Origin: Candidatus Poribacteria bacterium
Lineage (GTDB): Bacteria; Poribacteria; WGA-4E; JAJDTR01
Assembly: GCA_965197465.1 (NCBI GenBank)
Contig: OZ240209.1
Coordinates: forward strand, 3,738,423 to 3,802,422
DNA: 64,000 nucleotides
Reading direction: 5' to 3'
Shown here: positions 34,815-54,577 of the stretch, piece after piece
Layout: every line of letters starts with the position of its first letter
How positions within the stretch are numbered: position 1 is the first letter of the stretch
Notes under the pieces: model-generated
Told to the model about the DNA's origin: nothing
Database searches by the model: none
What the model saw: only the letters and a program-made list of their open reading frames with translations
Program-made: the position numbers and the translations under genes

Positions 34815-36191
34815 CTAAGGCAGCAACGGTTCCGGGGCTTCAATGAGCGCGCGTAAATCTCCGAGGAGGCGGGCACACGGGGCACCGTCAACCACTCGGT
34901 GATCGAAGGTGAGGACGAGCGTCGCCATGTCACGGGCCACGATCGAGTCACCGTCCACGACCGCAGCGCTACGCACTCGCCCGACGCCCAGGATGGCGCA
35001 CTGCGGTGGGTTAAGCACTGGCGTGAACCAGTCCACGCCAAGACCGCCGAGATTGGTCACCGTGAACGTGCCATGTGCAAAGTCGTCGGGTGCCAGTGTT
35101 CCCGCCTGGGCGCTGTCTGCGAGTTCTCTGACCACCTTCGCGAGCTCTACCACGCCGAGGGTGTCTGCGCCTCGAATGACCGGTACGACCAAGCCCGCCG
35201 CAATGTCAATGGCGACTCCCAAATTGATGTCACGATACTGGTGTATCGCACCGTCAATCAGCGCTGCATTGAGTTGGGGATGGGATTTTAATGCCTGGGC
35301 CGTAGCTTTCAGCACAAAATCGTTGATCGTCGGTGCGACGCCGTGGGTGTCTCGCCACGCGTCTGCATTTGACCTCCGCGCGGCCTGGAGCGTGCTGAAA
35401 TCAACCTCGATACCCTCGGTGACGTGCGGTGCCTCGGACCAGATCGCACCCAGGCGCTCGGCGGTAATCCGGCGAATACCGGCAAGCGGAGTAACCTCTA
35501 CACCAGGATCCGGAGTTTCATCGGCTGCTTCTTTCTGACTGGCTGTGCCGGCGTCCACAGCGCGCTGCACATCTTCTTTGGTCACCCGGCCACCCGGACC
35601 CGTGCCTTGCAACGTCTCGGCGTTTATGCCGTGCCGTTCTGCCAGCCGCTGCGCCACCGGTGTAACCCGTGAGCCCGCAGGACGATCGGCTGATGGCGCC
35701 CCGGGCTGTTCCACGTCACCAGGATCCGGAGTTTCATCAGCGGCTTTTTCCTGACTCACTGCACCGGCGTCAATCGCGCGCTGCACATCTTCCTTGGTGA
35801 TTCGTCCGCCCGGACCAGTACCTGGCAATGCCTCGGCGTCTATGCCGTGCCGTTGAGCCAGCCGCTGTGCCACCGGCGTAGCCCGTGACCCCGCAGGGTG
35901 TTCGACAGCCGAGGTCTTAGGTTGTTCTGCGGGGACCTCCGGTACTTCCTCCCCCTCCTCTCCGATCCAAGCCAAGGTTTCGCCAACCTCGTACTCACCA
36001 TCAACCTGACCGACGATGCGCAACAGCACGCCACTGACCGGAGACTCGACCTCGGCGACAGTCTTATCTGTCTCGATCGACACCAATAGCTGGCCTTCCT
36101 CAACTCTACTGCCTTCGGCTATGTGCCATTCGACGACACGTCCCTTTTCCATGGTGTGGCCGAAAGCTGCTAAACGGAACTGTATTGCCAT
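34815..36191 (-). CDS. dihydrolipoamide acyltransferase E2 of a 2-oxoacid (pyruvate/acetoin) dehydrogenase complex
   Basis: Lipoyl domain (ETDKTVAEVESP), two E3-binding domains (TPVAQRLAxRHGIDAE...GTGPGGR), catalytic DHRVVDGA. Confidence 0.9.
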   Translation of the reverse strand: MAIQFRLAAFGHTMEKGRVVEWHIAEGSRVEEGQLLVSIETDKTVAEVESPVSGVLLRIVGQVDGEYEVGETLAWIGEEGEEVPEVPAEQPKTSAVEHPAGSRATPVAQRLAQRHGIDAEALPGTGPGGRITKEDVQRAIDAGAVSQEKAADETPDPGDVEQPGAPSADRPAGSRVTPVAQRLAERHGINAETLQGTGPGGRVTKEDVQRAVDAGTASQKEAADETPDPGVEVTPLAGIRRITAERLGAIWSEAPHVTEGIEVDFSTLQAARRSNADAWRDTHGVAPTINDFVLKATAQALKSHPQLNAALIDGAIHQYRDINLGVAIDIAAGLVVPVIRGADTLGVVELAKVVRELADSAQAGTLAPDDFAHGTFTVTNLGGLGVDWFTPVLNPPQCAILGVGRVRSAAVVDGDSIVARDMATLVLTFDHRVVDGAPCARLLGDLRALIEAPEPLLP

Positions 36192-36235
36192 GGTTTCTCC
36201 TTTTCTGCTACGGCTGGACTTTCTGAGAAAGCGCG

Positions 36236-37209
36236 TTACGTCATCACCCGACCAACAGCCGCGGTAATATTAGAGACCTCGGGCACAACATGCTTGACGA
36301 GTTCGGAACTGAATGGCATGGGCACATGGGGGCTGCCAACTCGAATGACCGGCGCCTTGAGCGCTTCAAAACAGTTTTCACCAATCATCGCTGCTATCTC
36401 GGAGACCGCCCCGGCGAAACTGGAATCTTCTCCACAAACCACAGCGTGGCCAGTGCGCCGAACCGACTCGCAAATCGTCTCAGTATCCAGCGGTGAGAGG
36501 CTCCTCACATCAATGACCTCGACATCGTAACCATCGTCCTCTAGCAGCACAGCCGCTTCCTCTGACTTCTGCACCATCGGGCCGATAGCGACAACGGTAA
36601 CGTCCTCTCCGTCGCGAGTGATTTTGGCCTGGCCGATCGGTATGATGTGCTCACCTTCAGGCACCTCACCTCTGGAAGCATAAACCCGTTTGTACTCGAA
36701 AAATAGCACGGGTCAGAGCTGCGTACCGCACTCTTGAGCAGCCCCTTGGCGTCGCTAGGCGTCGAAGGCACGACGACCTGCAGGCCAGGAACGTGCATGA
36801 ACCACGATTCCATAATCTGTGAGTGCTGTGCAGCGAGCAACCAACCAACCCCACACGGCAGACGAAGGACCATGGGCACACTGGCTTGACCGCCCGTCAT
36901 GTAGCGCATTTTTGCCGCCTGGTTGACAACTTCGTCCATAGCGCAAGTCACGAAGTCCAGGTACATAATCTCGACCACTGGGTTCATACCCGCCATAGCG
37001 GCACCAACCCCCACGCCGACAATCCCCGCTTCTGCGATTGGTGTTTCAAGAATCCGTCCCGGGAAACGCTCCGCAATACCCTGTGTCACCTTGTAAGATC
37101 CGCCGTGCGTAATGACGTCTTCGCCAATGACGAATATCGTCTCGTCACGTTCCATCTCCTCATGCAACGCCTCGCACAAGGCTTCGGAGAAAGTCATCGT
37201 TTTTATCAT
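36236..37209 (-). pseudogene. 2-oxoacid dehydrogenase E1 beta subunit with a 1-bp-deletion frameshift near 36690
   Basis: Two ORFs (36541..37209, 36236..36709). Expected ...SSDPVLFFEYKRVY is read as SSDPCYFSS. Confidence 0.7.
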
Positions 37210-38193
37210 GCCACCTCCTGTCGGGGAGCGAGGACATCCGTGGTGACGTTCTCAGGCGTCGGGAACGGACTCTCCTCAGCAAATTTTACGGCCTTGGCGA
37301 TTTCATCCTTGACCTCGTCCTGGATCTTCGTATCCTCTTCGTCAGTCAGCCACTGACGCTCCATCATCACGGAGCGAAAGAGGTTGATCGGGTCACGGTC
37401 AGTCTTCCATTCTTCGACTTCCTCGGTGGAACGGTACTGCTCCTCGTCGCCCATGCTGTGTCCGTGGAAGCGGTAGGTCAGTGCCTCGATTAACGTTGGG
37501 CCCTCGCCTTTGCGGGCGCGCTCGACTGCCTCGCCGACGACCTCGTGGACTTCGACGATGTCTTGGCCGTTGATCGATTTGCCAGGAATCGCATAGGAAG
37601 CGGCCATATCGGCGACAGAATCGAGCACCGCCACATTCATACGCGGTACCCACTGTTGGTACTGGTTGTTCTCACAGATGTAGATAACAGGAAGTTTCCA
37701 TAGCGATCCAAGCCCGATGCCCTCGTGAAAGGTTCCGCGCGCGGCAGCGCCGTCGCCGAAGAAGCACACCGACACTTGATCGGTTCCGCGCATCTTGCTA
37801 GCGAGTGCGGCGCCGGTCGCCGGTCGCCGGTCCGATGCCGGCTCCCACGATGCCGTTGGCACCGAGCATGTTGAGAGAGAAATCGGCGATGTGCATTGAG
37901 CCACCTTTCCCGGCGCACGTCCCCGTAGACTTGCCGAAAAGTTCGGCCATCATACGGTGCGACTGTGCTCCCTTAGCCAAGCAATGGCCATGGCTGCGGT
38001 GTGTACCCAGGACGTAGTCGTCGTCGCGCAGATTGCCACAGACGCCTACGGCGACTGCTTCTTCTCCACAGTACATGTGAAGTGCGCCTACCACGGAGCC
38101 GAGACTCGTCTGGCGGTGTGCCTCTTCCTCGAAGAGCCGGATACGCCACATATCTTTGTACATCTTCTTGCTCAATTCAGGTGACAGGGTCAT
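37206..38193 (-). pseudogene. 2-oxoacid dehydrogenase E1 alpha (TPP-binding) subunit with frameshift caused by a 7-bp tandem duplication (CGGTCGC)x2 at 37814-37832
   Basis: Two ORFs (37798..38193, 37206..37904). ...GIGPATG[+7bp]AALASKMRG. Confidence 0.7.
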
Positions 38194-38463
38194 AAGTAAG
38201 TCTCCTAGAGTTGATAATATGTAGTCATCTTGGGCATATTCTATGGTATTTTCTGCAGTGCTGCTACGAACTGCCCAAACTCGCCGCCAACTTCAATATT
38301 GACCTCGTTATAACTTACTGGTCGGTCATTCCGAGCGTTTTATGGTTGTCGATTGGGGTGTTGCGATTTTCAGATTCATTGTAAGGTCAAAAATATCAGC
38401 CTCATCTTGAACCATCCCGGGAGTCATATGTTTTATTAGGTTGCCAATGATTCTTCAGTCTCC

Positions 38464-38739
38464 CTATTTTGCTTTTGCAACCATCAAGCATCCAGCCCAA
38501 GTCAACTCCTGCAGTAACAAACATCCTTTTGATAGCCATTCATCTGTCGAAAAATTTGGTGGACCATCTGAAATTCCAGGGATTTTGTTCGTCTGTTTGC
38601 AGATCTCCACAATCTGATCGATGGCAGTGAGGTGTTCAGGAGAATTAAAAGGGACACCCATAGAAGCAGCTAGATCAGATGGGCCTATCCAACATCCATC
38701 GATTCCGTCTGTTGACATAATTTCCTGCACATCCAGCAA
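38464..38739 (-). pseudogene. HpcH/HpaI aldolase family, C-terminal fragment only
   Basis: DGIDGCWIGPSDLAASMG is the family's C-terminal motif. Only 91 codons. Confidence 0.45.
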
Positions 38740-39229
38740 TATTTATGAACCAACTACCAGTTTCGAAGATTTGAGAAGCAGACAATTCTTCCACGTTCGC
38801 TTTCGAACCTAGAGCAAGCGGAGGAATTTCAGGTAAATCTATTTGGACTTCGCGGGTGGTCTGGGTACTACCATCAGGGGCAACAAAGGCCACATCAACT
38901 GTGTTCTCAGTATAGTTGTCAAAAAGAAAAGTATAACCATCCGCAAAAGCACGTTCTGGCAGCCCATCTTCCCCCGCCCAGACAGTAAGTGATTGCCCAT
39001 CTTTGTCCCTAAAGATTGCGCCTGAAATACGCTGACCTTCATCATCACTTAAAGCAACAATACTATCGCCGCTCTGATGCAGCATTATCGCTGGCATATT
39101 TAGATTATCTGTTCTTGCAAAAGAGACACCTTGATACAACGTATCAGCTAAATTTTGCTCCTCATCTGCTTCATCACTGCCACACCCAATCAATAGCGGA
39201 AGCAACACAATTAAGAGTAGCTAATCCAT
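38675..39229 (-). CDS. lipoprotein (LLLIVLLPLLIGC lipobox) whose third codon is TAG (ATG-GAT-TAG)
   Basis: A perfect lipoprotein signal peptide is in frame immediately after an in-frame TAG (39221-39223, minus strand). The ORF track's GTG 39208 is an alternative start. Confidence 0.45.
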
Positions 39230-40064
39230 AACAAACAAACCTTCTTATAAAGTCGATATCCATAATTCAACCTTGATGTGCGGATCTGATCTCCGGAGAT
39301 TATTTCTAGACTATAATATACCGGACATAGGCCACATGTGAAAAGAATAATACATTTCAAAATGACCTCTTTCCAAAATGCTGCTCGTGCGGGATATACG
39401 GGCCCCTCTCCGCATTTAGTTTATCTGAAAAGTGTCACTATAAACTGTAAGCGATATTACTCCAAAATATGACTCACTTTGGCCGATAATTAGATGGGAT
39501 ACCGTTGCATCCACGATCCAGTATTCACGCGGATTTGAGGGATTTTGTTGACATAAATTCTGCCACCCTCAAACCGCATCAATCCACACCCGGGGCGGAT
39601 CTTACCTCAAAAGGCACTTGTTTCGCGCCTCCAAAACAGTGGTTTTGGCAAATTCCCAAAAATCGGTGTTTGGAGGTGTCAACCCGGCTGCGGGTTTGAG
39701 GGGGATGTCAAGTTGGAAATCAGCCCCTGATTTTACTCAATTGTTGCCCCGCAACCCCGTGAGACTAGGAGCTGGTCTATGCAACGGTCACAAAAAACTG
39801 ATATGGGAGAGGAGAACGGTAAAGCCCGTTTAGCTTCTTGACTCTGGAGTTTTTTTTAATGTATCGTAATTGTTTAGTCTACTGATTTCTAGGGTCGAGT
39901 ACTACGAACCTGCACGGTTTTTTGCCATTTTTTAGGCGTACCCAGTGGTGAATGCCCATTTCCTTGATTTGTAGTGGGCAATTTTTTGCCCGTCTTACGG
40001 TTTTCAGGGTTTTCACTGACCACTAGCCACTAAACACTTACAATGTATCTAATCATTTCAGGGA

Positions 40065-40660
40065 GTGAATCTCTTGATGCCAAGGGTATCTTGTCAACCC
40101 AATGAAGTGGACGGCACCTTTGACGTGAGAAACACACGTCGATGTCAAAGATATGTCCGCTCGATACAAAGGAAACTAGACAGAGCGGTTGCCACCGGTG
40201 ATTGTGCCAGAATTCGCTGGTATGTTCATTTGCTTTGTAAAGTATCGAGGGCGGCTAAGGTAGTAGCGGTATGGAAAATACGAGCCTCAATTCAGGTAGA
40301 ACAACGGCAGGTGTAGATGGTGTTGCGATGCCACGGGCGACATCAGTAGCAACGCAAAACCAGATAAGGCACAATCTACTTGAAGGACTGAACGTGGAAA
40401 GCAAACCGCAACCGATAAAACGGGTGATGATTCCCAAGTCCAACGGAAAGAAACGCCCGCTCGGTATACCGACGTTAATCGATTGAATCCATCAAGAACT
40501 TATCAGAAGCGCGATTGAACCCATAGTCGAATATCACTTTCTAGCCTGTAGTTATGGATTTCGTCCGAAGCGAAGTTGTCAAGATGGGGCTGTAAAGTTT
40601 TTGGCAAAATGGGATTATGTAGTATTACATAATCGGTGATAAAGTCAGTGGGAACTGCAT
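40065..40660 (+). mobile_element. group II intron remnant: intron-encoded reverse transcriptase/maturase N-terminal region split over two frames and truncated
   Basis: ...AKVVAVWKI... / TAGVDGVAM...IKRVMIPKSNGKKRPLGIPTLIDRIHQELIRSAIEPIVEYHF..SYGFRPKRSCQDGA (RT domains 0-2). Confidence 0.65.
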
Positions 40661-41205
40661 TCGTCACCTCGTGTGAACATACTGAAAGCGGGGAGAAAGG
40701 CTGCCGGTGAACGGGGGTTCTCCCCCGCACCTCAGCTTACCTGCCGCTCTGCTTGTCAGCGCTTGGCATTTCTGGGTGCGAATCGTGTTCTCATGCGGGT
40801 TTATCGTTCATTTAGTGATAGTACGCAATGCCTCTTTTCTTAGCTCCTTGTCAAAAACTTTACAGAATGGCTTGACATTAACATGTCGGATCTGCTAAAA
40901 TTTCCAAACTTTTATCAAGAATTCCAAGACACAATGACCTGAGTTGGCGAGGTTGTTCGACAGGTATTGGATTGAGAATCTTATTCCGTTATATCTCAGC
41001 GAGTGAATCAATGAGGAATCGAGATGAAAGTAACCGGGAACGCATTTCGTGCCGACTCGGTAGAGGGTATCGCAGTTTGCCCAAAGTGGCTTTTCTTAGC
41101 CGCTTTCGAGAGTAAAGATTTTATTGGAACTATGTTAAGTGAATGTTGTAGAGTAAATCAATGATCGATGCGGTGTTTGATGACACCTAAGAGGAGGAAA
41201 ATAAG

Positions 41206-42081
41206 ATGAAGGTCAAATTTTTGCTGATTGGTGTAATTGTCACTCTTGGCATGTTGGCTGGCTCAAATTATGCTGAGATAGATCCTTCCTGGATTGTGGC
41301 CATCTGGACGTTTGATGAGGGTTCTGGTGGAACAGCCGGAGATGCTTCTGGAAATGGGCATGATGGGGCAGTTCCGGGCGATGTCAAATGGGTTGATGGG
41401 CCCTTTGGCACGGCTCTGGAGTTTGACGGGAGCCCCATTCCTGACGCGGGAGGGCAACCTTTTTTAGACGGGAGCGTGGTTGAAGTTCCGTATCATGATG
41501 ACTTGAACCTGAGAGATGTTTACAGCTTGGTCGCCTGGGTGAAAGTCGATCCGGAAAATGCTTGCTGTGATCGCAATCCTGAACCGTGGGGCGGTATTAT
41601 TGTCAAAAGAAATCATGTCCACGATCCAGCGTCTGGCGGCGAAAGAAATTGGGGGCATTGGGGATTATGGGTTGGTGCTGCGGACCAAGGTGCAGTGGCC
41701 TTGTGGGGAAATATGGCAGGGCGCGGCGAAATTAATCAGTGGTGGTTGGCAAAGCGTAACCTTGCCGATGGAGAATGGCATCACGTCGCTGCCGTGTGGG
41801 ACCGATTTGAATTAATATTTTATGTAGATGGAGTGGATGATACGAGCGAAGATGGTAACGTAAGCGGCGACGCGATGGGCGTCATCGAACAACCGCTTAC
41901 CATCGGCGGTGACCTAAATGACCATTATTTCAGCGGCGCCATTGATGAGGCGGCAATTTTCAGTGAGCCGTTGAGCGAGGGTGATATCCAGGACGTTATG
42001 GGGGGACTGGGGCGGTATGCGACCGCTGTTGATTCTTATGGGAAAGTCGCCGTCACCTGGGCAAGCATCAAAGCCCAGTGA
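41206..42081 (+). CDS. secreted LamG-like (concanavalin A-like lectin/glucanase) domain protein
   Basis: Signal peptide. ...FDEGSGGTAGDASGNGHDGAV.GDVKWVDGPFGTALEFDG. C-terminal ...KVAVTWASIKAQ. Confidence 0.75.
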   Translation: MKVKFLLIGVIVTLGMLAGSNYAEIDPSWIVAIWTFDEGSGGTAGDASGNGHDGAVPGDVKWVDGPFGTALEFDGSPIPDAGGQPFLDGSVVEVPYHDDLNLRDVYSLVAWVKVDPENACCDRNPEPWGGIIVKRNHVHDPASGGERNWGHWGLWVGAADQGAVALWGNMAGRGEINQWWLAKRNLADGEWHHVAAVWDRFELIFYVDGVDDTSEDGNVSGDAMGVIEQPLTIGGDLNDHYFSGAIDEAAIFSEPLSEGDIQDVMGGLGRYATAVDSYGKVAVTWASIKAQ

Positions 42082-42237
42082 AAATATAGATATTTAAGGA
42101 GCTGAAGCTGTTGTAATATGGTATTCGAAACAACTCAAGCGTTAGACCTAACTGAAACGACACGTTTTTGATGCGGGTTGCCAATGTCGTCGAGCCCAGT
42201 GGTGTCGGTCACATGATTTCGAACCGCCCGATTTTAA

Positions 42238-42981
42238 TCAAGCGAAAGTTGGGCTTGCTCGGTTAGCATCAGTGAATGTTTGCGCGATTGCCGCTATTTC
42301 TGGGCTTCCCGATACCTGGCACTGATGAACGAATGAGAATTTCATCTGCCCCGCTGAGTGATAATTTTGTCCTCGTCGGGGCTTTTTTCTGCCTGCCAAC
42401 AGACGACTCCCCCAGAAGTATTGGCGTTCTGTCTTCTTCGGCGGTGTATATCTGATACAGAAGTAACGGTAGCGTGCGGCGCATTCATCGAGTGTGTTCC
42501 CTATCGAAAAGAACGCCGGGTGCCACTGTGTCAGTCCATCGTCGGTCAATCGGTCGTAGGTTCCGTAATTTGAGAACGTGTAGAAAAATCCTTCTCGTAT
42601 GCCTGCCGCTTTGGGGTTGGCGTGGATATCGCGCAAGGTATTGAGCGCACGTTGCTTGTCGTCTTTGTGGAATCCTGTGCTGTGATACCGTTGTTCCCAG
42701 AAATGCCCCTTTCGGTTGAGCATGCGGTTGACGCACATCGCCGTGTACCAGTTGAGCCAGTGCATGATTTGGGGCAAATCCAAAGGGGCTTTGGGTTCAA
42801 TCAGGTAGTGGATGTGGTTACTCATGATGCAAAAAAAGCCGTACTTCTCCTGAGCCCTTTTTATCGCGTACAGCAGCACCTCTCGGCATTCTTGGGACGT
42901 CAGGTGAAATTCACGGTTGTTGCAGCGAACGGTCACATGGTAGCAGTAATCAGGTTGCAAGTCTCGCTTTGGACGTGGCAT
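42238..42981 (-). CDS. IS200/IS605-like Y1 (HUH) transposase, REP-associated tyrosine transposase (RAYT)-like
   Basis: YHVTVRCNNREFHL...HIHYLIEP (HuH) ... Confidence 0.7.
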   Translation of the reverse strand: MPRPKRDLQPDYCYHVTVRCNNREFHLTSQECREVLLYAIKRAQEKYGFFCIMSNHIHYLIEPKAPLDLPQIMHWLNWYTAMCVNRMLNRKGHFWEQRYHSTGFHKDDKQRALNTLRDIHANPKAAGIREGFFYTFSNYGTYDRLTDDGLTQWHPAFFSIGNTLDECAARYRYFCIRYTPPKKTERQYFWGSRLLAGRKKPRRGQNYHSAGQMKFSFVHQCQVSGSPEIAAIAQTFTDANRASPTFA

Positions 42982-43098
42982 CTGTTGACCTCCCTCTCTT
43001 GTGGGTCGTGGCTAGCTGAGTCCTCCATTCCTTGAAACCCCAAGGCGGTGTTGAGCGTTTGTTGCTGGCGAAATTATAACATCTGTTAAAAAATCGGG

Positions 43099-46554: not shown

Positions 46555-46715
46555 GGAAGTCCAGTTGTTGCATTATACCATACCTGCAACGCTAGTAGAA
46601 CTAAAGATATTGGCGAACCCCCTCTCGTGGGCATCAAGACAGTACGAAATAATGCCTAGAAAGCAAAACCCCAGTGTGGCGCACACCGGGGCTGGGTGAA
46701 AAACAGGAATAGACC

Positions 46716-46914
46716 TGAGTTCTAGCTTTAATCCATTTTCTAGAACTTGTATAAATGGCCGAAACGGCCAGCAAGAGACTTTCCTGTTTATCCACCATTT
46801 TTTTCACGAAATCTAGAACTGGACGGCATGTAGGCATACCTCTCCGCCAGAAATGCTTGTGGTTATTGGGTTTGTGGGATTGTATGAGTTCTAGAAAATA
46901 GGGGTCTGTTGGAA
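46716..46914. promoter_or_regulatory. cluster of AGTTCTAGAACT-type palindromic sites, one split by 14 bp, enclosing a TGTATAAAT -10-like box; candidate recombination sites or operator array
   Basis: GAGTTCTAG-14bp-CTAGAACTT (46716-46747), ATCTAGAACT (46810-46819), GAGTTCTAGAAAATAGG...GGAACTC (46885-46914). TTGTATAAATGG at 46746-46757. Confidence 0.3.
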
Positions 46915-47159
46915 CTCGAAGCGCTTTTGATATTTTCATTTATCTTCCATCACCCACCAAGGATTTCTACCATTCGCTATACACGCCTGCCAATTTAATA
47001 AACGACGGTTTGATGGATACAAAAAACGGCTCAAACCCAGGATTTAATTGGATTCAAGCCGTTTTGAAAAATGCTTACTAAATGGGAGCTTATCGAGTGT
47101 CCTTTATTTCTTCCCGTGCTGTAGCGAGCTTATTCTGTTACCATATTCGCCACCTAACG

Positions 47160-48056
47160 TTACAGTTCACCGGCGCCCTTGGCGTCCGGTGAAACCGATG
47201 GTTGGGCGGCTTGTGTCACGGTCTCGAGCGTCTTGTCTGCTACAAAGCCGATTTCAGTCTTGATAAGGTTTATGTCGTAGACGCAGTCGTACTCGTGTCC
47301 AGGTTTTTCAAAGTGTGACAGGTTGACGTCACTGCCCCACCAGTTTCTAAGAACCTCCGCAACGGGGATTGCCACCCAGGCTTTTGGGCCCGCTGCATTC
47401 ATAATGCGAACTCCGGACTTGTAAGGGGCTTCCGCGGCCATCGTGAAGGCGCGGGCGGCGTCGCTTAGTGCCATGATTGTGATGCCGCCCAAGGCCCATT
47501 TTGTCAGTGGGGCTGACCCTTGGAGGGGCGGCATGCTCTCATCCGGGCACACGGATGACAGACGCAGGTTGATTACGTCAATCTCCGGGTTCTGGCGGTG
47601 ATGGTACTTCGACACCTCTTCCATCAGGTATTTGGAGAACCCGTACCCGTCACGGTCGAGACACGGATGTTCGTCCGGAATAGGAACCTGGCAAGGTCTG
47701 AACATCGTGCTCTGGAAGCCCACGGCCGCAATAGAACTGGCCATCACGAACTTTGTGCACCCACGATCGATCAAATACCGCATGAGACATCGTGTACCCT
47801 CGACGTTGACAAGCATTCCGTCGCGCTCCGCACAGCCGCCGGTCACGGCGGCCAGATGGATGACCACATCGACCGGTTTCTGGTCGAGCCGACGCAGATC
47901 CTCAAACGAACCAAAGTTGCCCCGAATCCAAGTAAGATTCGCCCCGGGCCTCTTGCGGCTCATGCAAAGCACCTCGTGCTTCACTGACATGGCTTTCGCA
48001 AGCGCTTGGCCAATGAAGCCACTGGCTCCAGTGATCAATACTGTGCTCATAGACAC
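47160..48056 (-). CDS. NAD-dependent epimerase/dehydratase (SDR family)
   Basis: MSMSTVLITGASGFIGQALAKA... Confidence 0.8.
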   Translation of the reverse strand: MSMSTVLITGASGFIGQALAKAMSVKHEVLCMSRKRPGANLTWIRGNFGSFEDLRRLDQKPVDVVIHLAAVTGGCAERDGMLVNVEGTRCLMRYLIDRGCTKFVMASSIAAVGFQSTMFRPCQVPIPDEHPCLDRDGYGFSKYLMEEVSKYHHRQNPEIDVINLRLSSVCPDESMPPLQGSAPLTKWALGGITIMALSDAARAFTMAAEAPYKSGVRIMNAAGPKAWVAIPVAEVLRNWWGSDVNLSHFEKPGHEYDCVYDINLIKTEIGFVADKTLETVTQAAQPSVSPDAKGAGEL

Positions 48057-48059
48057 GTT

Positions 48060-48770
48060 CCTTTCCGCCTGAAGGAAGCGACTTCAGGTCTGCCAATTGA
48101 TGACAACGCCAACAATACCCTTATCTGTTCCTTGATTGATGCGCTGAAACATCTAGGGCGCGTCCATGAAGCCGATGCGATGGCTAATGCATTGCTCCCA
48201 CTTCAGCGCGCCCATGGCCATATTCTTCACAACGGCTCGCCGACAGGGCCGCCAGCCGTCGTCGGACGGGAAGAACATCTTTAATCGCCGACCGTGCGCG
48301 GGAAGAAAATGCATGGAGACCGGGGCACTGCCATAGTTCCCCTGCCAGACAAAACTGCCATGTTCACGGCAGAGCGCAATGGCCGGATCGATGCACTCGG
48401 GAATCCCCGTGCACTCAAAGACGACATCGGCCCCTCCGGCGCGATCTTTTTCACCTCGGCTTGCACATCGCCGGACTCACCGCTGATCGAGTAATCAGCC
48501 CCCAACTGCTTGGCGACGGCCTACCGTTTCTCATTGAGATCGACGGCCAGCACGACGCAACCGCGGTGTGCGCAGGCGGCAACAACTCCCAGTCCGATCA
48601 GGCCGGTGCCGTAGACAACAACCGTCTGGCCCATCCGGGGGTTCGTCATATCCACCCCGTACAGCCCTACGGCAGGCATCACGAACATACAGGCCACGTC
48701 CATCTCCACGCCGGGGATCATGTGGTCAACACCCTCCGTCGTGTCGGGCCTCGTCACAAATCATGTCCAA
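48060..48770 (-). pseudogene. zinc-dependent alcohol dehydrogenase remnant with multiple frameshifts
   Basis: Fragments VVVYGTGLIGLGVVAACAHRGCVVLAVDLNEKR, AKQLGADYSISGESGDVQAEVKKIAP and others in different frames. Confidence 0.45.
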
Positions 48771-48774
48771 GAAT

Positions 48775-49359
48775 CTAATCCCTTTTACCTAGCTTAATAT
48801 CCTGATGTCGAAGGCAAGCATACAACGTGGATCTCGCGATCGACAGGTGCTCACAGATCTGTGTGGTCGATAATTTGCCCTCCTTGTAAAGTTTCTCCGC
48901 AATCATCGCTTTGTCTTTAGCTTGCGACGATAGTCCCTTTGGGCGTCCACCTTTACGACCTCTGGCTCTGGCGGCTTTCAATCCTGCATGAGTCCGCTCT
49001 CGAATCATATCCGCCTCAAATTCAGCTAATGCAGCAAAGATGTGAAACGTTAGCTTGCCTTGGGGGGTGGTCGTGTCGATATTATCGTGAAGGCTCTTCA
49101 GTCCAGCACCTTTTTCTTGGATTTCGTTTACGAGTTGAACCAGGTCCTTAAGCGAACGACCCAGGCGGTCGAGTCTCCAAATGATAATGACATCTTTCGG
49201 GCGAAGATAGTCCAGAAGTTTCTGAAACTCGGGTCGTTCCTTGGTTCGACCGGTAATCTTCTCCTGATAAAACTTCTTGCATTTTGCTTTATTGAGAGCA
49301 TCAAGCTGAAGTGCGAGATCTTGGTCTTCAGTTGATACCCTGGCGTAACCTATTCGCAT
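48775..49359 (-). CDS. serine recombinase (resolvase/DNA invertase family)
   Basis: MRIGYARVSTEDQDLALQLDAL... (catalytic Ser) ...C-terminal HTH. 194 aa. Confidence 0.9.
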   Translation of the reverse strand: MRIGYARVSTEDQDLALQLDALNKAKCKKFYQEKITGRTKERPEFQKLLDYLRPKDVIIIWRLDRLGRSLKDLVQLVNEIQEKGAGLKSLHDNIDTTTPQGKLTFHIFAALAEFEADMIRERTHAGLKAARARGRKGGRPKGLSSQAKDKAMIAEKLYKEGKLSTTQICEHLSIARSTLYACLRHQDIKLGKRD

Positions 49360-49593
49360 GTATAAAAGTTTAATAAAACGTTAGTGATATGCTATTTTTA
49401 TACTTTGATTCAGTATACCACTTTTTGATTCCGTTTTGGAGGGTATTTCTGCAGTTACAGCGAAAAATCAGCTAAGCAATGTGAGTTTCAAATAACGAAC
49501 GTTTTTGTGAACTTGTTGAGCTCTGGATTTGGTGGGTTGATGAGGAAGATCTGCTGGACTCGGCTAAGAGTGAACTTCCTACTAAAGGACCGG

Positions 49594-50634
49594 CTACTCC
49601 CAATCCATCGGATCAATATCCTGCCACCGTTGGTCACTCTCGATCCACTTGTTCGGTGCGGTATCGATCTCGTATTTGGCAAATACTCGGTCAATCTTTC
49701 GCTTCACATCTTCTGTCAGAGTCCAGCCCAAGGCAGGCATATTATCTTCAACTTCTGCCACCGTTCGCGTGCCTACCAGTGCCGTGCTCACCGCAGGATG
49801 TGACAACACCCAGTTCAGTGCCAGCTGTGGCAGGCTTTTGCCCAGGTCTGCGGCAATGGCTTTGATTTCATTGACCGCCTGGATATTCCGTTGAAAGACC
49901 CCTGGCACGAACAACCGCAGCGAGGTTTGAGAGCCTCCGCCTTTTCGCCAATCTCCGCCCTCAAAAACGGTGTTCTCATTAAGCACACCGCTCAGTAATC
50001 CAAAAGCCAGTGATGCATAAACCATCATGCCGATATTATGTTCCTGGGCATAGGGAAAAATCCACTTCGCCTGGCGGCGGTCAAACATATTGTAGCCGTA
50101 TTGCAGCACATCTATTCTGCGTGCAGCCATACAGCGCTCAATTTCAGCCGGCGTAAAATTCGATGCCCCCACATACCGCACCTTGCCGGCCTGCACAAGT
50201 TCGTCGATGGCACCTAACGTTTCTTCAAACGGCGTATCCCGATCCGGCCAGTGTACCAGGTAAACATCGATATAATCCGTATTCAACAGCGCCAGACTCT
50301 GGTCGATGGCTTTGTGCATCATTTGCTTGCTGCTGTCTCGACCATGCTGATATCCAGTCCCGAACTTGGTCACTAAAATCACATCTTTCCGCCGATTACC
50401 CAGGGCGCGGCCAAGCAACTGTTCGGATGCGCCCATCCCATATTGCTGAGCCGTATCAAAACAGTTGATGCCAAGATCAATAGCCCGGTTGACAGCGGCG
50501 ACCATCTCCGATTCATCAAAATCCCCATACGAGCCAGCCATTCCCCAACACCCAAAACCAATGGGGGAAACTTCGAGCTCGGTCTGTCCAAACGGACGAT
50601 ATTCCATATATTTCTCCATGTCAAACCTCCGCAA
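49594..50634 (-). CDS. aldo/keto reductase
   Basis: GFGCWGMAGSYG...GINCFDTAQQYG...LVHWPD. Confidence 0.9.
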   Translation of the reverse strand: MRRFDMEKYMEYRPFGQTELEVSPIGFGCWGMAGSYGDFDESEMVAAVNRAIDLGINCFDTAQQYGMGASEQLLGRALGNRRKDVILVTKFGTGYQHGRDSSKQMMHKAIDQSLALLNTDYIDVYLVHWPDRDTPFEETLGAIDELVQAGKVRYVGASNFTPAEIERCMAARRIDVLQYGYNMFDRRQAKWIFPYAQEHNIGMMVYASLAFGLLSGVLNENTVFEGGDWRKGGGSQTSLRLFVPGVFQRNIQAVNEIKAIAADLGKSLPQLALNWVLSHPAVSTALVGTRTVAEVEDNMPALGWTLTEDVKRKIDRVFAKYEIDTAPNKWIESDQRWQDIDPMDWE

Positions 50635-50977
50635 ATGGCTCTGTCACGCTAACAGACGTGATGAGAGCCGTTTTCTTTTTCTTTGGCCAATTCTTGATTT
50701 CGAATTCTCGTTTCAGTGCTTCTGATCGGTTTTTACATGCTTCCGAGTAGACGACTCTAACCGGTTTATGCACCCTGGTATACGCACCGCCTTTCTTAGC
50801 CAGGTGCTCCTGGAATCGCCGTTGGACATCGGTGGTGATTCCAGTGTAGTAGCTTTTGTCTTCGCATTCGAGAATGTAAACGTAGTACATGCCACAAATC
50901 ATACCAGATGCGGTTTTGTGAATCCAACTTTTCCACAGCCCTTTGTCAATTCCGTCCAGTCCTCCCTTCTTTTTCAT
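50621..50977 (-). CDS. GIY-YIG nuclease family protein (YhbQ/COG2827-like); probable start at internal Met (MYYVYILEC)
   Basis: YYVYILECEDKSYYTGITTDVQRRFQEH...GAYTR...RSEALKREFEIKNW. Confidence 0.75.
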   Translation of the reverse strand: MKKKGGLDGIDKGLWKSWIHKTASGMICGMYYVYILECEDKSYYTGITTDVQRRFQEHLAKKGGAYTRVHKPVRVVYSEACKNRSEALKREFEIKNWPKKKKTALITSVSVTEPFAEV

Positions 50978-51000
50978 TTCCGCCCAAATTTTATAATGAG

Positions 51001-51024
51001 CAACAACAACACGGTGTTGTTGTT
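51001..51024. promoter_or_regulatory. near-perfect palindrome CAACAACAACACGGTGTTGTTGTT in the divergent promoter region between the GIY-YIG and DnaD-like genes
   Basis: 11-bp arms. Confidence 0.4.
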
Positions 51025-51045
51025 AAAAATTAAAAATATAACAAC

Positions 51046-51603
51046 ATGAACAAACAACATGCTGTTGCCGTCCTCATGAGGCACAACGTCACCAACGTCA
51101 TTGCGGAAAACTTAGCTAAGCAACATTCCAGTGAGCAGATTATGGCTCAAATCAGGATGTTGTCATATCGTAACGCAACGGATAATCCTGCCGGACTCTT
51201 AGTCAAGTCCATCCGTGAAAACTGGGCAGCACCGGAAGCATACCTGGAAGTTCAGCATAAACATAATGCCATGCTTGAGGAACGGAAACGACAGGCAGTC
51301 AAGCGACAACGGCTAGCGTCACAACGTAAAGCGATTGAAAAAGTCAAAGCCAACCTTACAAAAGATGAACTCGAAAATCTCAAGCAGAAGGCGATAGATC
51401 GAGTCGCGAGGATTATGCGCAACTACTATGGTGCTGACAACTTGCCTGCCCCACTCATCAACGGCGTTATGAACCGTATCATCAAAGAGAATTATCTAGA
51501 CAACCCCCAGCAAAGAGCACCAGATCTGCTTAATGGGGGATTGACAGAAAAAACAAACTATGTTACCGTGTCGCCCGACCGTACCCTGGCGTTGGTAGTA
51601 TAG
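51046..51603 (+). CDS. hypothetical coiled-coil protein with DnaD-like (…IxxxW) replication-protein-type motif
   Basis: ...RNATDNPAGLLVKSIRENWAAPEAY..., charged coiled-coil middle. Function unassigned. Confidence 0.4.
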   Translation: MNKQHAVAVLMRHNVTNVIAENLAKQHSSEQIMAQIRMLSYRNATDNPAGLLVKSIRENWAAPEAYLEVQHKHNAMLEERKRQAVKRQRLASQRKAIEKVKANLTKDELENLKQKAIDRVARIMRNYYGADNLPAPLINGVMNRIIKENYLDNPQQRAPDLLNGGLTEKTNYVTVSPDRTLALVV

Positions 51604-51650
51604 CAAGTTATCATTATTTTGTTATAACAAGGCACGTCAAATAGAAGGTT

Positions 51651-52045
51651 GTGACCATGAACGAGCAAGTAGAATTCGCAACTATGAGTGACCGAGCGAG
51701 ATACCTGTTCGATCTCCAAGGCTTTCTCGTCGTCAAAGGTATGCTCCCTGCCACTGAAGTGAAAACCCTGAATGAAGCCCCCGAAGCTAATCTGGACAAT
51801 CGTGGAAACTTCGGGGAAGCGAACGCCATCAGTGGAAATTAGGAGGGAAGGCCTTTTGAAGGCCGTTTCAGCCCATTTCGGCACTACAAGGGCATGCTGA
51901 CATGGGAGCAGCCGTGGTGCCAGCCCTTCCGTGATATGTTGGCCCACCCAAAGGTCATTCCCTACCTCAATACGCTGCTCGGCCGAAGCTGGAAGCTAGA
52001 CCAGGGCGTTGACCTACTCAATCCTGTGGAGGGTTGTGAAGGAAG
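51651..52045 (+). pseudogene. PhyH family protein, N-terminal half, frameshifted and truncated by a MITE insertion
   Basis: YLFDLQGFLVVKGMLPATEVKTLNEA, then a shifted frame ...MLAHPKVIPYLNTLLG. Ends at the MITE terminal inverted repeat (TIR). Confidence 0.55.
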
Positions 52046-52312
52046 GGTACCAACCGAAATTGTGTAATGGTACACCCTAAGAAAAATTTGCTCAGTGTTT
52101 TTGGGGGTTCCGTCCACTTGCTGGTGTCGTGATAGTTAAGAAACTCATCGCTGATAGTGGAAACTATACTTTGTTTTCTTTACTGAGTTTCTTAACCGCA
52201 GGAACCCAGTAAACACGTGGGTTGGAAGGACAATTCAAATCGTAAAGAAAATGAGGGTTTTCTTTACTCTCATCGCTTAGGGTGTACCATTACAGTAATT
52301 CGGTTGGTACCC
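52046..52312. mobile_element. MITE, ~267 bp, with ~36-bp terminal inverted repeats GGGTACCAACCGAAATTGTGTAATGGTACACCCTAAG
   Basis: Left TIR 52046-52082. Right TIR reverse complement at 52276-52312. Internal GTTTCTTAAC/GTTAAGAAAC hairpin. Interrupts the PhyH gene. Confidence 0.65.
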
Positions 52313-52536
52313 TGAATAGGGCAAGTTTTTCACAGACTCGTGCTCGTTGCGCTATCGTCTGCAACCGCGCAGCGGGAATGACAACCCCATTTTTATGTTA
52401 GCCCAAGTTGCCACCTAAAATTGATTGAACTTTTTTAACGCGGACATCCATGGAGACTGGTAAGAATCTACGGAACCTGTATCATCTGCGTGATCTGTGT
52501 CCTACCTTTAAGTTGTGAGTTAATACGGAGGAATAC

Positions 52537-53517
52537 ATGGAAATTCCCAGAGAGAAGCTACTTGAAATCTACGAGCGGATGGCAACCATCCGCCAATTTG
52601 AAGAACGGGTGCGTGAAGAATTCGCCGCGAACCGTATCCCAGGCTTCGTCCATCTTTATGCGGGCGAGGAGGCAGTAGCGGTTGGCGTCTGCGCCCATTT
52701 GACTGACGAGGACATGATTACAAGCACCCACCGTGGTCACGGTCACTGTATTGCGAAGGGGGTTGATGTCAAGGCGATGATGGCCGAGTTGTACGGACGC
52801 GCAACTGGGGCCTGCAAAGGGAAGGGCGGCTCAATGCACATTGCTGACCTGGACCGGGGCATGCTCGGCGCTAACGGTATTGTCGGCGGGGGCATTCCGC
52901 TCGCGGCCGGCGCGGCCCTTAGTGCCCAGGTCCGTGGCACCCAAAACGTCGCTGTCAGCTTTTTCGGTGATGGCGGTTGCAACGAGGGTAGCTTCCACGA
53001 AGGTCTAAATCTAGCCGGTGTTTGGAATCTCCCTGCTATCTTCGTTGCGGAGAACAATGGATGGGCGCAGACGACCGGTAGCGACTACTCTGTGGCTGGT
53101 GCTGACATCGCTGGACGTGCGAGGGCCTACGGCATACGCGGCACTGTTGTTGATGGCCTAGACCTCTTCGACGTTTATGAAAAAGCTGGCGAGGCCATTG
53201 CTGCAGCACGTGCTGGAGAAGGCCCCGCGCTTTTGGAGTGCAAAACCTACCGCTTCTACGGCCACCACGAGGGCGATAAGCAGAGGTACAGAACGCAGGA
53301 GGAAGTCGAGGAATATCGCAAAAATCATTGTGTCATCAAAAATTTCCGCGCGCGTACGACCCAAGAACAGGTGTTGGCCGACGACGAACTGGATGCTATC
53401 GACAATAAAGTAGCAAGTGACATAGAAGCAGCTGTTGCGTACGCGGCCGATAGCCCATGGCCCGAACCTAGTGATGTGACGGACGATGTCTACGTGAACT
53501 ACAAGGAGGTTGTATAA
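52537..53517 (+). CDS. 2-oxoacid (pyruvate/acetoin) dehydrogenase E1 alpha subunit (TPP-binding)
   Basis: PGFVHLYAGEEAVAVG...GKGGSMH...GDGG.NEG. Intact 326 aa. Confidence 0.9.
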   Translation: MEIPREKLLEIYERMATIRQFEERVREEFAANRIPGFVHLYAGEEAVAVGVCAHLTDEDMITSTHRGHGHCIAKGVDVKAMMAELYGRATGACKGKGGSMHIADLDRGMLGANGIVGGGIPLAAGAALSAQVRGTQNVAVSFFGDGGCNEGSFHEGLNLAGVWNLPAIFVAENNGWAQTTGSDYSVAGADIAGRARAYGIRGTVVDGLDLFDVYEKAGEAIAAARAGEGPALLECKTYRFYGHHEGDKQRYRTQEEVEEYRKNHCVIKNFRARTTQEQVLADDELDAIDNKVASDIEAAVAYAADSPWPEPSDVTDDVYVNYKEVV

Positions 53518-54479
53518 TGAGCGAAGAACGAGAGCTTACCATGGGGGCAGCTGCTCGTGAGGCCCTGCATGATGAGATGGAGCGGGATTCCACGGTAGTC
53601 GTTATGGGCTTCGTCCATCTTTATGCGGGCCTGGTGGGCAAGTATGGGCGGAACCGTGTGCGCGATACGCCGATCAGTGAAGCAGGCTTCATCGGTGCGG
53701 CCATTGGCGCAGCAGCAACGGGACTCAGGCCTGTAGCCGCGCTTATGTGTGTCGATTTCTTTGGTATACCAATGGATCAGATTTTCAATCAGGGGGCCAA
53801 AATCCGTTACATGTTTGGTGGTAAGGCTAAAGTTCCTGTGGTTATCCGTGCAGCAATCGGGGGTGGGATTAATGCAGCCGCACAACACTCTCAGTGCCTC
53901 TACTCTATCTTCGCCCATATCCCAGGCCTGAAGGTCGTAGTCCCCTCCACGCCGTACGATGCCAAGGGTCTGTTGACTGCGGCCATACGCGATGACGATC
54001 TCGTGTTTTTCCTCGAACACAAGAGGCTGATGGGTTCGAAGGGGCACGTCCCTGAGGAATCCTATGTCGTCCCCTTCGGCGAAGCGTCCGTCCGGCGGGA
54101 GGGCAGCGATGTCACGGTTGTCGCCATCGCGAAGATGATCGATGTAGCGTTAGATGCAGCGGACGAGCTTGAAGCAGAAGGAGTAAGCGTCGAATTGATA
54201 GATCCACGCTCGTTAAGCCCGTTGGATGGGCGGACGATTCTAGATTCGGTCGAGAAAACCGGTCGCCTTGTGGTCGTGGACGAGGATACACCGAGATGTA
54301 ACCTCGCGACCGACATCACGGCGCTGGCAGCGGACGAGGCGTTCTATAGCCTTGAGGCACCGATTAAGCGCATCTGCCCGCCACACACGCCTGTGCCCTT
54401 CAGTCCTGTACTGGAGGCTGCCTATATCCCGTCGCAAGATCGGGTCGTGACGGCGATCCGGGAGGTGGTGGCTGCATGA
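53517..54479 (+). CDS. 2-oxoacid dehydrogenase E1 beta subunit (N-terminal motif atypical)
   Basis: ...RVRDTPISEAG...PSTPYDAKGLL...IDPRSLSPLD. ATGA start/stop overlap with E1 alpha. The GEDVGxYGG motif is replaced by FVHLYAGLVG. Confidence 0.8.
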   Translation: MSEERELTMGAAAREALHDEMERDSTVVVMGFVHLYAGLVGKYGRNRVRDTPISEAGFIGAAIGAAATGLRPVAALMCVDFFGIPMDQIFNQGAKIRYMFGGKAKVPVVIRAAIGGGINAAAQHSQCLYSIFAHIPGLKVVVPSTPYDAKGLLTAAIRDDDLVFFLEHKRLMGSKGHVPEESYVVPFGEASVRREGSDVTVVAIAKMIDVALDAADELEAEGVSVELIDPRSLSPLDGRTILDSVEKTGRLVVVDEDTPRCNLATDITALAADEAFYSLEAPIKRICPPHTPVPFSPVLEAAYIPSQDRVVTAIREVVAA

Positions 54480-54577
54480 AGGCTGTCGTATTTCCCAAGT
54501 CGGGCCAGACCGCTAAAGGGCAGGGCTATTCGACACCTTCGGGGTCCCAGAGCACGGCATGTCATCAAAGTCGTTAG
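54476..54577 (+). pseudogene. zinc-ADH-like N-terminal stub (MKAVVFPKSGQ..., 33 codons), ATGA-overlapped with E1 beta
   Basis: Typical MDR N-terminus, then a stop. Likely remnant of a butanediol/acetoin-operon dehydrogenase. Confidence 0.35.

Follow-up and report, generated by a model that had tools for sequence, protein, structure and literature searches.

The pyruvate dehydrogenase (PDH) of Geobacillus stearothermophilus (PDB 1W85, 3DUF) combines an alpha2beta2 E1 with an E2 that bears an E3-binding domain (PSBD), and its catalytic glutamate is E59beta (PMC2663715). Operons with a like Pfam architecture are found intact in other Candidatus Poribacteria in two forms, which we call locus 1-type (L013; L014 = GCA_003635265.1; E1alpha 326 aa, E1beta 323 aa, E2 458/519 aa) and locus 2-type (L007, L011, L020; E1beta 340 aa, E2 382 aa). 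Both E2 types, which share only ~35% identity, are present in many other Poribacteria on contigs of equal length, often apparently on the same chromosome. The intact ancestral architecture is observed directly in these relatives, and Poribacteria ancestrally carried two paralogous E1alpha-E1beta-E2 operons for PDH-like 2-oxoacid dehydrogenase complexes.

We compared these operons with two loci in a window of 64,000 nucleotides from a Candidatus Poribacteria bacterium (Table 1; all positions refer to the window). Gene order, overlaps and protein lengths are those of the intact operons, although flanking synteny differs. Compared with L013, the locus 1 E2 of the window is 83% identical, and E1alpha and E1beta align throughout once repaired. 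The best solved-structure match of the locus 2-type E1beta is to the E1 of a G. stearothermophilus-type PDH/BCKDH (E = 2e-79). Unlike the intact operons of relatives, neither operon in the window has uninterrupted frames for every subunit: locus 1 carries two frameshifts, and in locus 2 an internal stretch of E1beta is replaced and E2 is gone. Many independent lesions are directly observed across near-identical strains. We conclude that in this mobile-element-rich sponge-symbiont genome both operons have very probably begun, recently and under relaxed selection, to turn into pseudogenes, and that the relaxation may have its cause outside the operons.

Table 1. Features of the two operons and their surroundings in the window.
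Feature	Position	Strand	Basis
Locus 1 E2, dihydrolipoyl acyltransferase, intact ORF in window strain	34815..36191	minus	ORF and Pfam
Locus 1 E1beta pseudogene, one G lost at 36709/36710	36236..37209	minus	split ORFs, Pfam, repair
Locus 1 E1alpha pseudogene, TPP-binding subunit, +7 frameshift	37206..38193	minus	split ORFs and Pfam E1_dh in two frames
7-bp tract CCGGCGA, 3 units in window	37810..37830	minus	array read at 37830-37810
Locus 2 E1alpha, full-length ORF, 326 aa	52537..53517	plus	Pfam E1_dh 1-299/300; orthologues equally long
Source of 24-nt copy, codes GFVHLYAG in E1alpha, then GGGCGAGGA	52642..52665	plus	repeat family D2
Locus 2 E1beta, open frame, internal in-frame replacement (-81 nt, +21 nt)	53517..54479	plus	alignment
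Putative templated filler within locus 2 E1beta, exact 24-nt copy of 52642-52665	53607..53630	plus	repeat comparison
Locus 2 E2 remnant, first 10 codons MKAVVFPKSG	54476..54505	plus	orthologous 382-aa E2 starts at same ATGA overlap
Group II intron fragment lacking its 5' end, running on from the 3' part of domain 1, joined to E2 remnant	54505..54904	plus	
Chimeric ORF	54953..55387	minus	last 40 codons (54953-55073) are an IS1-like DDE transposase C-terminus

The locus 1 E1alpha is split into two ORFs on the minus strand (38193-37798 and 37904-37206) that match positions 2-106 and 110-300 of the Pfam E1_dh model, respectively. The frameshift is caused by the third copy of CCGGCGA, two units being in frame. 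The preliminary description had given the duplication as CGGTCGCCGGTCGCCGGTC at 37814-37832, which is exact, and once 7 bp are taken out the frame encodes 326 aa, alignable over the full length of the intact orthologues in L013/L014. The ThDP motif GDG...NN is present as FFGDGAAARG...ENNQY, and Pfam PF00676 is matched. Sister strains have one unit, compared with three in the window; the +7 allele gives a 131-aa product on at least 8 contigs, the -7 allele gives a 180-aa product on 3 contigs, and an in-frame allele of 326 aa occurs in P0278. Sequence comparison with other Poribacteria found no repeat at this tract, which reads CCAGCCACCGGCGCC. Synonymous changes may have produced a CCGGCGA-CCGGCG direct repeat, which would then have slipped to three units in the window strain and to one unit in others.

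The locus 1 E1beta likewise consists of two minus-strand ORFs (37209-36541 and 36709-36236). The 1-bp deletion proposed earlier for this gene is the loss of a single G (GACCCGGTG to GACCCGTG), and putting the G back restores 324 aa. Both Pfam domains are matched (PF02779 Transket_pyr and PF02780 Transketolase_C), the catalytic Glu in TPIAE is kept, and the repaired protein scores 375 bits against a cut-off of 321 in the PDH E1beta subfamily model NCBIfam NF006667. Identical copies of the 222-aa frameshift product are found on other contigs. Some sister strains are free of this -1 lesion but carry other lesions in the same gene. Besides the intact allele, there are at least four lesion types across strains: the -1 deletion, two further frameshifts, one of them C-terminal, and an in-frame loss of 6 aa.

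The E2 of locus 1, encoded with its own E1, is intact in the window, as had been described: 36191-34815 is one open frame of 458 aa whose full domain set is recognized by Pfam (a lipoyl domain, two PSBDs and a catalytic domain), with the motifs ETDKT and, in the catalytic domain, DHRVVDG (consensus DHRxxDG). Sister strains show the nonsense mutation W22* (G>A at 36127) and a 1-bp deletion at 35248, and further frameshifts occur in P0288 and P0292, so that the strains hold at least three independent frameshifts plus W22*. Intraspecific SNPs in this gene comprise 7 nonsynonymous and 6 synonymous changes, versus a nonsynonymous/synonymous ratio of ~0.3 on the long branch to L013/L014, which indicates that inactivation of locus 1 is recent. 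Since lesions in both operons vary across near-identical strains, the intact E2 appears incidental in the window strain, where it would simply have escaped mutation so far. Some sister strains keep an intact locus 1 E1beta or E1alpha, suggesting that a fraction of the population may retain a working operon.

At locus 2, the preliminary description took both E1 genes to be intact. This holds for E1alpha, which is full length and contains the ThDP motif (FFGDGGCNEG...ENNGW; Pfam PF00676), but not for E1beta, which has 320 aa compared with 340 aa in its closest orthologues. Alignment shows that 27 residues (EDVVGGAGSKLPDAEDCWGGPFGITGG) are swapped for seven (FVHLYAG), and five invariant positions are gone (E32, D33, G50, G51 and T56). 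The altered protein is 84-90% identical to P0003, matches both PF02779 and PF02780, and retains the QHS histidine, the stacking Phe and, in TPISE, the catalytic glutamate corresponding to E59beta. AlphaFold2 gave it a pLDDT of 49 and a pTM of 0.40, against 79 and 0.82 for an intact orthologue, a weak comparison given that both alignments were shallow. We infer that its function is lost. The inserted segment is flanked by microhomologies, GGC on the left (3 nt) and GGGCGAGGA on the right (9 nt). Together with the apparent copying of the patch from E1alpha, these indicate a template switch, by which a deletion in E1beta would have been filled with 21-24 nt from 965 bp upstream. Additional frameshifts or truncations of locus 2 E1alpha/E1beta occur in other strains (P0134, P0149, P0129, P0133, P0148), E1alpha being broken in P0148 and P0149.

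No E2 follows the locus 2 E1beta, as the preliminary description had stated, and comparison with homologues found no locus 2-type E2 on the species' contigs. The 33-codon ORF at 54476-54577 had been called an alcohol-dehydrogenase stub. It instead starts with ten codons of the operon's own E2, the only ones that remain, and continues into foreign sequence; its start overlaps the E1beta stop in an ATGA, as is usual for locus 2-type operons. The adjoining intron fragment aligns with positions 4689-5095 of L016, in which the upstream part of the copy matches Rfam RF02005 (129 bits). Judged from this alignment, the fragment begins near position 180 of the RF02005 model, while the window's own match is a weak one to RF01998 at 54647-54719. 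It is an internal D1-D4 piece rather than a complete group II intron (domains 1-6, 5' GUGYG): at the gathering threshold, Rfam gave zero matches anywhere in the window, hence no D5/D6, and the window's ORF list contains no RT ORF for a group II intron. In the chimeric ORF farther along, the transposase C-terminus is joined to 104 initial codons of an unrelated gene. The Pfam DDE_Tnp_IS1 match is weak (E = 0.004), and a longer piece of the same IS1-like transposase occurs in L010 and L016. The locus 2 E2 would have been deleted beyond codon 10, with a breakpoint abutting the group II intron and IS1-like fragments.

NCBIfam equivalog models for E1alpha and E2 all scored under their cut-offs. TIGR03182 (PDH_E1_alph_y) is the best-matching model for both E1alpha proteins, yet it reached only 361.6 bits for the repaired locus 1 protein and 364.4 bits for that of locus 2, versus a cut-off of 393.85, and we therefore assign no substrate. 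Identity as an acetoin dehydrogenase (AcoABC) was rejected, the acetoin E2 model NF011457 scoring 84-89 bits against a curated cut-off of 307 and covering the lipoyl/PSBD part only. No E3 (dihydrolipoyl dehydrogenase) adjoins either locus in the window or in the relatives' loci. Some JGI names read 'acetoin:DCPIP oxidoreductase'; these are automatic labels.

Several other explanations were weighed. Sequencing or assembly error had been raised at the outset as grounds for dismissing the frameshifts, and there is next to no chance that they are consensus errors in truly intact genes. The lesions and their presence in independent assemblies are directly observed: identical frameshift products recur in several ENA samples, on contigs covered 12-29x, in independent long-read assemblies. 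These are nearly identical elsewhere: across 12,963 bp, the window is separated from L001 by 3 mismatches without any gap, and other strains show few indels. Both gain or loss of a 7-bp unit and loss of a G from a GG dinucleotide are atypical of long-read homopolymer errors. The occurrence of one, two or three CCGGCGA units among strains would fit a phase-variation (contingency) switch, and the frameshifts might conceivably be bypassed by programmed ribosomal frameshifting. Either is hardly credible, as the tract is merely 1-3 units long and inspection of the locus 1 E1beta lesion found the canonical slippery heptamer missing. The strains read with one or three units also have a broken E1beta and/or E2, so no ON state could restore function, and we rejected an ON/OFF toggle at this locus. 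The copy-number change is best explained by neutral slippage in a gene that is dead.

The preliminary description proposed a functional complex with the E1 of locus 2 and the E2 of locus 1; its E1alpha/E1beta would dock on the PSBDs of the locus 1 E2, with E3 encoded elsewhere. The window strain indeed has its sole intact E2 ORF at locus 1 and open E1 ORFs only at locus 2, and a second strain (P0289) also has an intact locus 1 E2. Nevertheless, such a hybrid is very improbable. Conserved residues, 27 in all, are missing from the locus 2 E1beta, each operon comes with a native E2 quite unlike the other's, the W22* and frameshift alleles of the locus 1 E2 occur in strains with the same locus 2 state, the 7:6 ratio in that gene also speaks against the hybrid, and the locus 2 E1 genes are themselves broken in some strains. 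Also very improbable is that the 27-to-7 change is adaptive remodelling in a cross-operon complex of the three frames still open in this strain or, in a milder version, that loss of a shared partner discards both operons. Candidates for the lost partner would be E3, the attachment of lipoate and the metabolic need as such, and its loss would mean that the whole lineage of this sponge symbiont has shifted its metabolism. It is unlikely, if somewhat easier to imagine, that locus 2 E1alpha and the altered E1beta form a working thiamine-diphosphate enzyme, without E2 or with another, in which the variant is tolerated. Most sampled strains, and most of the species' Mb-scale contigs, have both ORFs open, the catalytic residues are kept, and the altered protein barely reaches the NF006667 cut-off (322.3 vs 321 bits). 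As modelled by AlphaFold2 in the intact orthologue, the segment lost here consists mostly of loop, making some activity conceivable. Against this stand the removal of five invariant residues, the absence of a cognate E2 in the species and the frameshifts and truncations in other strains, while the low dN/dS between the W and P alleles reflects divergence of functional orthologues from different lineages and is thus uninformative on selection after the E1beta lesion. The two loci are most likely a case of ordinary gene decay rather than of a complex divided between them. The earlier suggestion of one complex in mid-decay was correct in kind and understated, both operons being in decay.

Compared with G. 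stearothermophilus PDH, the locus 1 E2 differs in having two PSBDs, and the loop after strand 1, the region deleted here, is longer by 11 residues in the locus 2 family. Templated insertions (filler DNA) arise at deletion junctions via template switching or microhomology-mediated repair. The E1beta patch resembles them in its identity to same-strand sequence upstream and in its flanking microhomologies, although its mechanism is read from sequence only and the event would have kept the reading frame by chance. Contingency loci that vary by slipped-strand mispairing likewise shift frame with 1, 2 or 3 copies of a repeat unit, but the CCGGCGA tract is very short, and none of the strains examined offers a functional ON state. 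Host-associated bacteria, e.g., Mycobacterium leprae and Sodalis, accumulate pseudogenes and IS expansions. Our loci share with them recent independent inactivations in dispensable operons and mobile-element fragments at deletion breakpoints, but lie in an extracellular sponge-symbiont genome of ~6.6 Mb, in which decay is a polymorphism segregating among co-existing strains rather than a fixed loss.

At least ten independent lesions, in varied combinations, affect both paralogous PDH-like operons in co-existing strains of one Poribacteria species, and we consider it likely that the two 2-oxoacid dehydrogenase operons have undergone parallel recent pseudogenisation in a mobile-element-rich symbiont genome. 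Both operons, locus 1 on the minus strand and locus 2 on the plus strand, have the native order E1alpha-E1beta-E2. The closest named proteins and two matching GTDB records belong to Candidatus Poribacteria MAGs. For the operon proteins, the nearest NCBIfam models are those for pyruvate dehydrogenase; E1alpha and E2 fall under all NCBIfam equivalog cut-offs, and scores for the acetoin-specific E2 model stay well short of its threshold.

Coordinates and domain content of the operon genes and of the chimeric ORF in the window
Feature	Position	Strand	Content
Locus-1 E1alpha, upstream piece	38193-37798	minus	Pfam E1_dh model positions 2-106
Locus-1 E1alpha, downstream piece	37904-37206	minus	Pfam E1_dh model positions 110-300
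Locus-1 E1beta, upstream piece	37209-36541	minus	Pfam Transket_pyr
Locus-1 E1beta, downstream piece	36709-36236	minus	Pfam Transketolase_C
Locus-1 E2	36191-34815	minus	Pfam lipoyl domain, two E3-binding domains, acyltransferase catalytic domain
Locus-2 E1alpha	52537-53517	plus	326 aa, full length
Locus-2 E1beta	53517-54479	plus	open frame, 320 aa
Chimeric 144-aa ORF	54953-55387	opposite strand	3' end (40 codons) of an IS1-like transposase gene joined to the start (104 codons) of an unrelated gene

Locus 1 is read as five ORFs in three frames on the minus strand (38193-34815). The E1alpha frame breaks within the tract CCGGCGA-CCGGCGA-CCGGCG (37830-37810), and without one 7-bp unit the gene encodes 326 aa in gap-free alignment with intact E1alpha proteins from two other genomes. 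In E1beta, one G has been lost from GACCCGGTG at 36709/36710, where the window reads GACCCGTG; with the G restored, the product is 324 aa long and collinear with intact orthologues. Given these repaired alignments, together with the ORFs and Pfam matches, the preliminary description of locus 1 as carrying a 7-bp duplication in E1alpha, a 1-bp deletion in E1beta and an intact E2 was exact. Within E2, a 211-nt direct repeat (80-84% identical, window 35501-35927) corresponds to two consecutive peripheral-subunit-binding domains (PSBDs) with their linkers. Tandem PSBD architecture is uncommon among E2 proteins; locus-1-type E2 of relatives comes in 458-aa or 519-540-aa forms, which suggests two or three PSBD copies. 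The 3 kb upstream of locus 1 (38200-41200) has no ORF above 177 aa and zero Pfam matches, differs among strains by several small indels and by a block of wholly different sequence (38353-38500), and is possibly further decayed DNA.

Frameshifts of this kind could be assembly or sequencing artefacts, a reading to which we attach hardly any weight. Long-read metagenome assemblies made independently from several ENA samples contain near-identical DNA, with 3 mismatches and no gap over 12,963 bp between the window and its nearest counterpart (L001), and 99.4-99.7% identity with few indels for the remaining strains. The same lesion products recur there: the 222-aa E1beta frameshift product on several contigs, the 131-aa E1alpha product on at least eight, and the 320-aa locus-2 E1beta on contigs of 6.63, 6.46, 6.37 and 1.42 Mb. 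Identical lesions in independent assemblies make assembly error very unlikely. Phase variation through the 7-bp repeat is just as hard to credit. The repeat has three units in the window and several other contigs, and one unit in L004, L005 and L006, where E1alpha is out of frame too since one unit means 14 bp fewer; two units and an in-frame 326-aa E1alpha (P0278) were found on one short contig. The corresponding tract is CCAGCCACCGGCGCC in other Poribacteria, so the slippage-prone repeat was made by synonymous changes in the window's lineage.

Across strains, the locus-1 operon is broken in differing ways. Strains closest to the window share the -1 lesion in E1beta, and others, with an E1beta protein more than 97% identical, have either an intact gene or one of three other lesions: a frameshift in the C-terminal part, another distinct frameshift, or an in-frame loss of 6 residues. 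The 1-bp deletion was thus ruled out as a common founding lesion, as sister strains in the cluster that lack it have other lesions or none. The window and one other contig have an unbroken E2 gene; among the rest, the gene shows W22* (G>A at 36127), loss of 1 bp at 35248 or at least two further frameshifts. Its intraspecific SNPs number 7 nonsynonymous (the nonsense mutation included) and 6 synonymous, and on the long branch between the window and the intact locus-1-type relatives L013 and L014 the nonsynonymous/synonymous codon ratio is ~0.25-0.32, with a similar value on the L013 branch. Taken together with the strain-varied lesions, these values indicate that constraint on locus 1 was normal until recently. 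The operon is now gathering lesions across all three genes without any single founding hit, and the unbroken E2 of the window reflects chance rather than selective retention.

The preliminary description had taken both locus-2 E1 genes as intact, which holds for the full-length E1alpha but fails for E1beta. Its closest relatives are 340 aa long, and in the alignment FVHLYAG stands in place of 27 residues (EDVVGGAGSKLPDAEDCWGGPFGITGG) after the first beta-strand. The replacing DNA (53607-53630) is an exact 24-nt copy of E1alpha 52642-52665, which there encodes the conserved GFVHLYAG motif. In E1alpha the source tract is followed by GGGCGAGGA; intact orthologues have an identical 9-mer after the left breakpoint, and the other edge shares GGC. 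Judging from these junctions, a template switch or microhomology-mediated repair may have filled a deletion in E1beta with nearby E1alpha DNA. The lost segment corresponds to residues 28-42 of G. stearothermophilus E1beta and holds five invariant columns in a 13-sequence alignment; the catalytic glutamate (E59beta in the G. stearothermophilus protein; PMC2663715) is kept. AlphaFold2 gives the 320-aa protein a pLDDT of 49 and a pTM of 0.40 against 79 and 0.82 for an intact orthologue, and, both alignments being shallow, this low predicted confidence lends weak support to E1beta damage.

Downstream, all relatives with an intact operon have a 382-aa E2 that begins at an ATGA overlapping the E1beta stop, with the N-terminus MKAVVFPKSGLITEQGTLLQW. 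The window ORF at 54476, earlier labelled a 33-codon alcohol dehydrogenase stub, opens with MKAVVFPKSG and diverges thereafter; the shared start and ATGA position identify it as what is left of the 5' end of the operon's native E2 gene. No further piece of locus-2-type E2 occurs within the window, in agreement with the earlier statement that locus 2 lacks an E2. Sequence beyond the remnant (54505-54904) aligns with a second copy in L016, whose upstream continuation matches the Rfam group II intron RF02005 (129 bits); the window fragment itself has a weak RF01998 match only, and the Rfam (gathering threshold) and tRNA scans of the window gave zero matches. Relative to RF02005, the window copy begins near model position 180; the E2 remnant is thus joined to the interior of an intron, and the junction is a deletion breakpoint, not an insertion site. 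A site-specific element inserted twice at one E2 site had been suggested by the finding that the window and L010 are nearly 100% identical over 54505-55073, beside E1 genes that are only ~82% identical. We ruled this out because the sequence is a 5'-truncated internal intron piece and the locus is also a two-allele recombination mosaic. Poribacteria genomes have group II intron fragments lacking a reverse-transcriptase ORF at two places (window 54509-54904 and L016 4496-5095; 75% identity), and the two copies share one end point (TCTCTACCACC). The transposase remnant in the chimeric ORF has a weak Pfam IS1 match, and NCBIfam assigned it no IS family.

The replacement is present in every sampled locus-2 E1beta allele of the cluster that covers the N-terminus, and in some strains long contigs show additional frameshifts or truncations in E1beta or E1alpha (P0134 with P0149, P0129, P0133, P0148). 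Loci with the window's synteny (L017-L019) switch between the window's allele (W) and a ~18% divergent one (P), which forms an intact operon in another lineage (L020/L007). Comparison of window 52516-54495 with L017-L019, L010 and L020 reveals sharp allele switch points with 100% identical flanks in a single syntenic background, a sequence pattern which indicates that co-resident Poribacteria lineages often exchange DNA by homologous recombination. Near the replacement and across the E2/intron junction, only W-type sequence occurs, which fits recombination tracts halting at heterologies. A dN/dS of ~0.04 between the window and L010 was rejected as a measure of selection on the altered E1beta: the P-type operon is intact in L020, which is 98-99% identical to L008/L010, so W-P dN/dS measures pre-lesion divergence and is uninformative on later selection. 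L008 and L009, which combine an altered E1beta with an intact E2, were dropped as a guide to the order of events, since they match L020 everywhere but in the replaced tract and are possibly chimeric short-read assemblies.

Repeats and mobile elements also occur elsewhere in the window. Upstream of locus 2, a pair of 38-nt inverted repeats (52044-52313) is 92% complementary and 194 nt apart. In L015, from the same species, a 213-bp MITE-like element (L015 1087-1299) lies inside this pair at window ~52138, with terminal inverted repeats GAACCTGTTTGAA / TTCAAACAGGCTC and TTA/TAA flanks. Between the two loci are mobile or selfish-element genes (42238-42981, 48775-49359 and 50621-50977) for a REP-associated tyrosine (IS200-like Y1) transposase, a serine resolvase and a GIY-YIG nuclease; the sister contigs L003 and L006 have additional ISAzo13-type and IS110-type transposases. 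A 413-aa epimerase/DUF8371 gene (56851-58092), unbroken in the window, is split into 294 and 125 aa by a 1-bp indel (window 57826) in a 6.52-Mb sister contig (L002 9335-10577), one more strain-specific gene disruption. Two pairs of dispersed direct repeats, 83-84% identical, lie at 62111-62541 / 63555-64000 (449 nt) and 13394-13523 / 14131-14260 (130 nt); the former overlaps ORFs 62120-62911 and 63564-63971, probably tandem paralogues.

The locus-1 type is intact in L013 (6.35-Mb contig) and L014 (GCA_003635265.1), with E1alpha of 326, E1beta of 323 and E2 of 458/519 aa, and the locus-2 type is intact in L007, L011 and L020. The match lists of both E2 types share many Mb-scale Poribacteria contigs of equal size (e.g. 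6807964, 6345663, 6660635, 6957337), and contigs of the window's species are absent from the best 120 locus-2-type E2 matches. Given the intact relatives and shared contigs, the ancestor therefore had both operons complete, each including an E2 of its own, with no E3 gene next to either; both are damaged in the window's species. A tblastn search with genes flanking the relatives' operons showed no conserved synteny in the window, exact look-ups of E2 and of the FG-GAP and Laminin_G_3 neighbours gave no match, and we found no directly relevant literature on Poribacteria pseudogenes or Poribacteria PDH.

The initially proposed functional complex of locus-2 E1 and locus-1 E2 finds no support: it would combine a damaged E1beta with an E2 that sister strains can do without, and would join distantly paralogous systems whose E2s are ~35% identical. 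It is doubtful, too, that the locus-2 E1 keeps a residual E2-independent activity. The alternative offered earlier, one complex in mid-decay, was right about decay but too narrow, as both operons are pseudogenising. As the lesions of this parallel decay are spread over all genes of both operons, we suspect a cause of relaxation outside them, for example E3, lipoylation, an alternative pyruvate-oxidising enzyme or host-supplied metabolites.

This spread points to relaxation on both complexes at once, a hint about the metabolism of the symbiont lineage, and the locus captures operon loss in progress; other Poribacteria retain both PDH-like operons whole. For annotation, five apparent genes are pseudogenes or remnants: locus-1 E1alpha and E1beta, the altered locus-2 E1beta, the E2 stub and the chimeric 144-aa ORF. 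The altered E1beta illustrates that a gene can be damaged although its reading frame is open and close to normal length, and its in-frame templated patch is a clean natural case of filler DNA copied from an adjoining gene. What is gained is a corrected annotation, together with a population snapshot at good resolution. Operon decay, repeat slippage, filler DNA at deletions and mobile-element debris are all well known, and the locus is a fresh instance of them with nothing mechanistically new.
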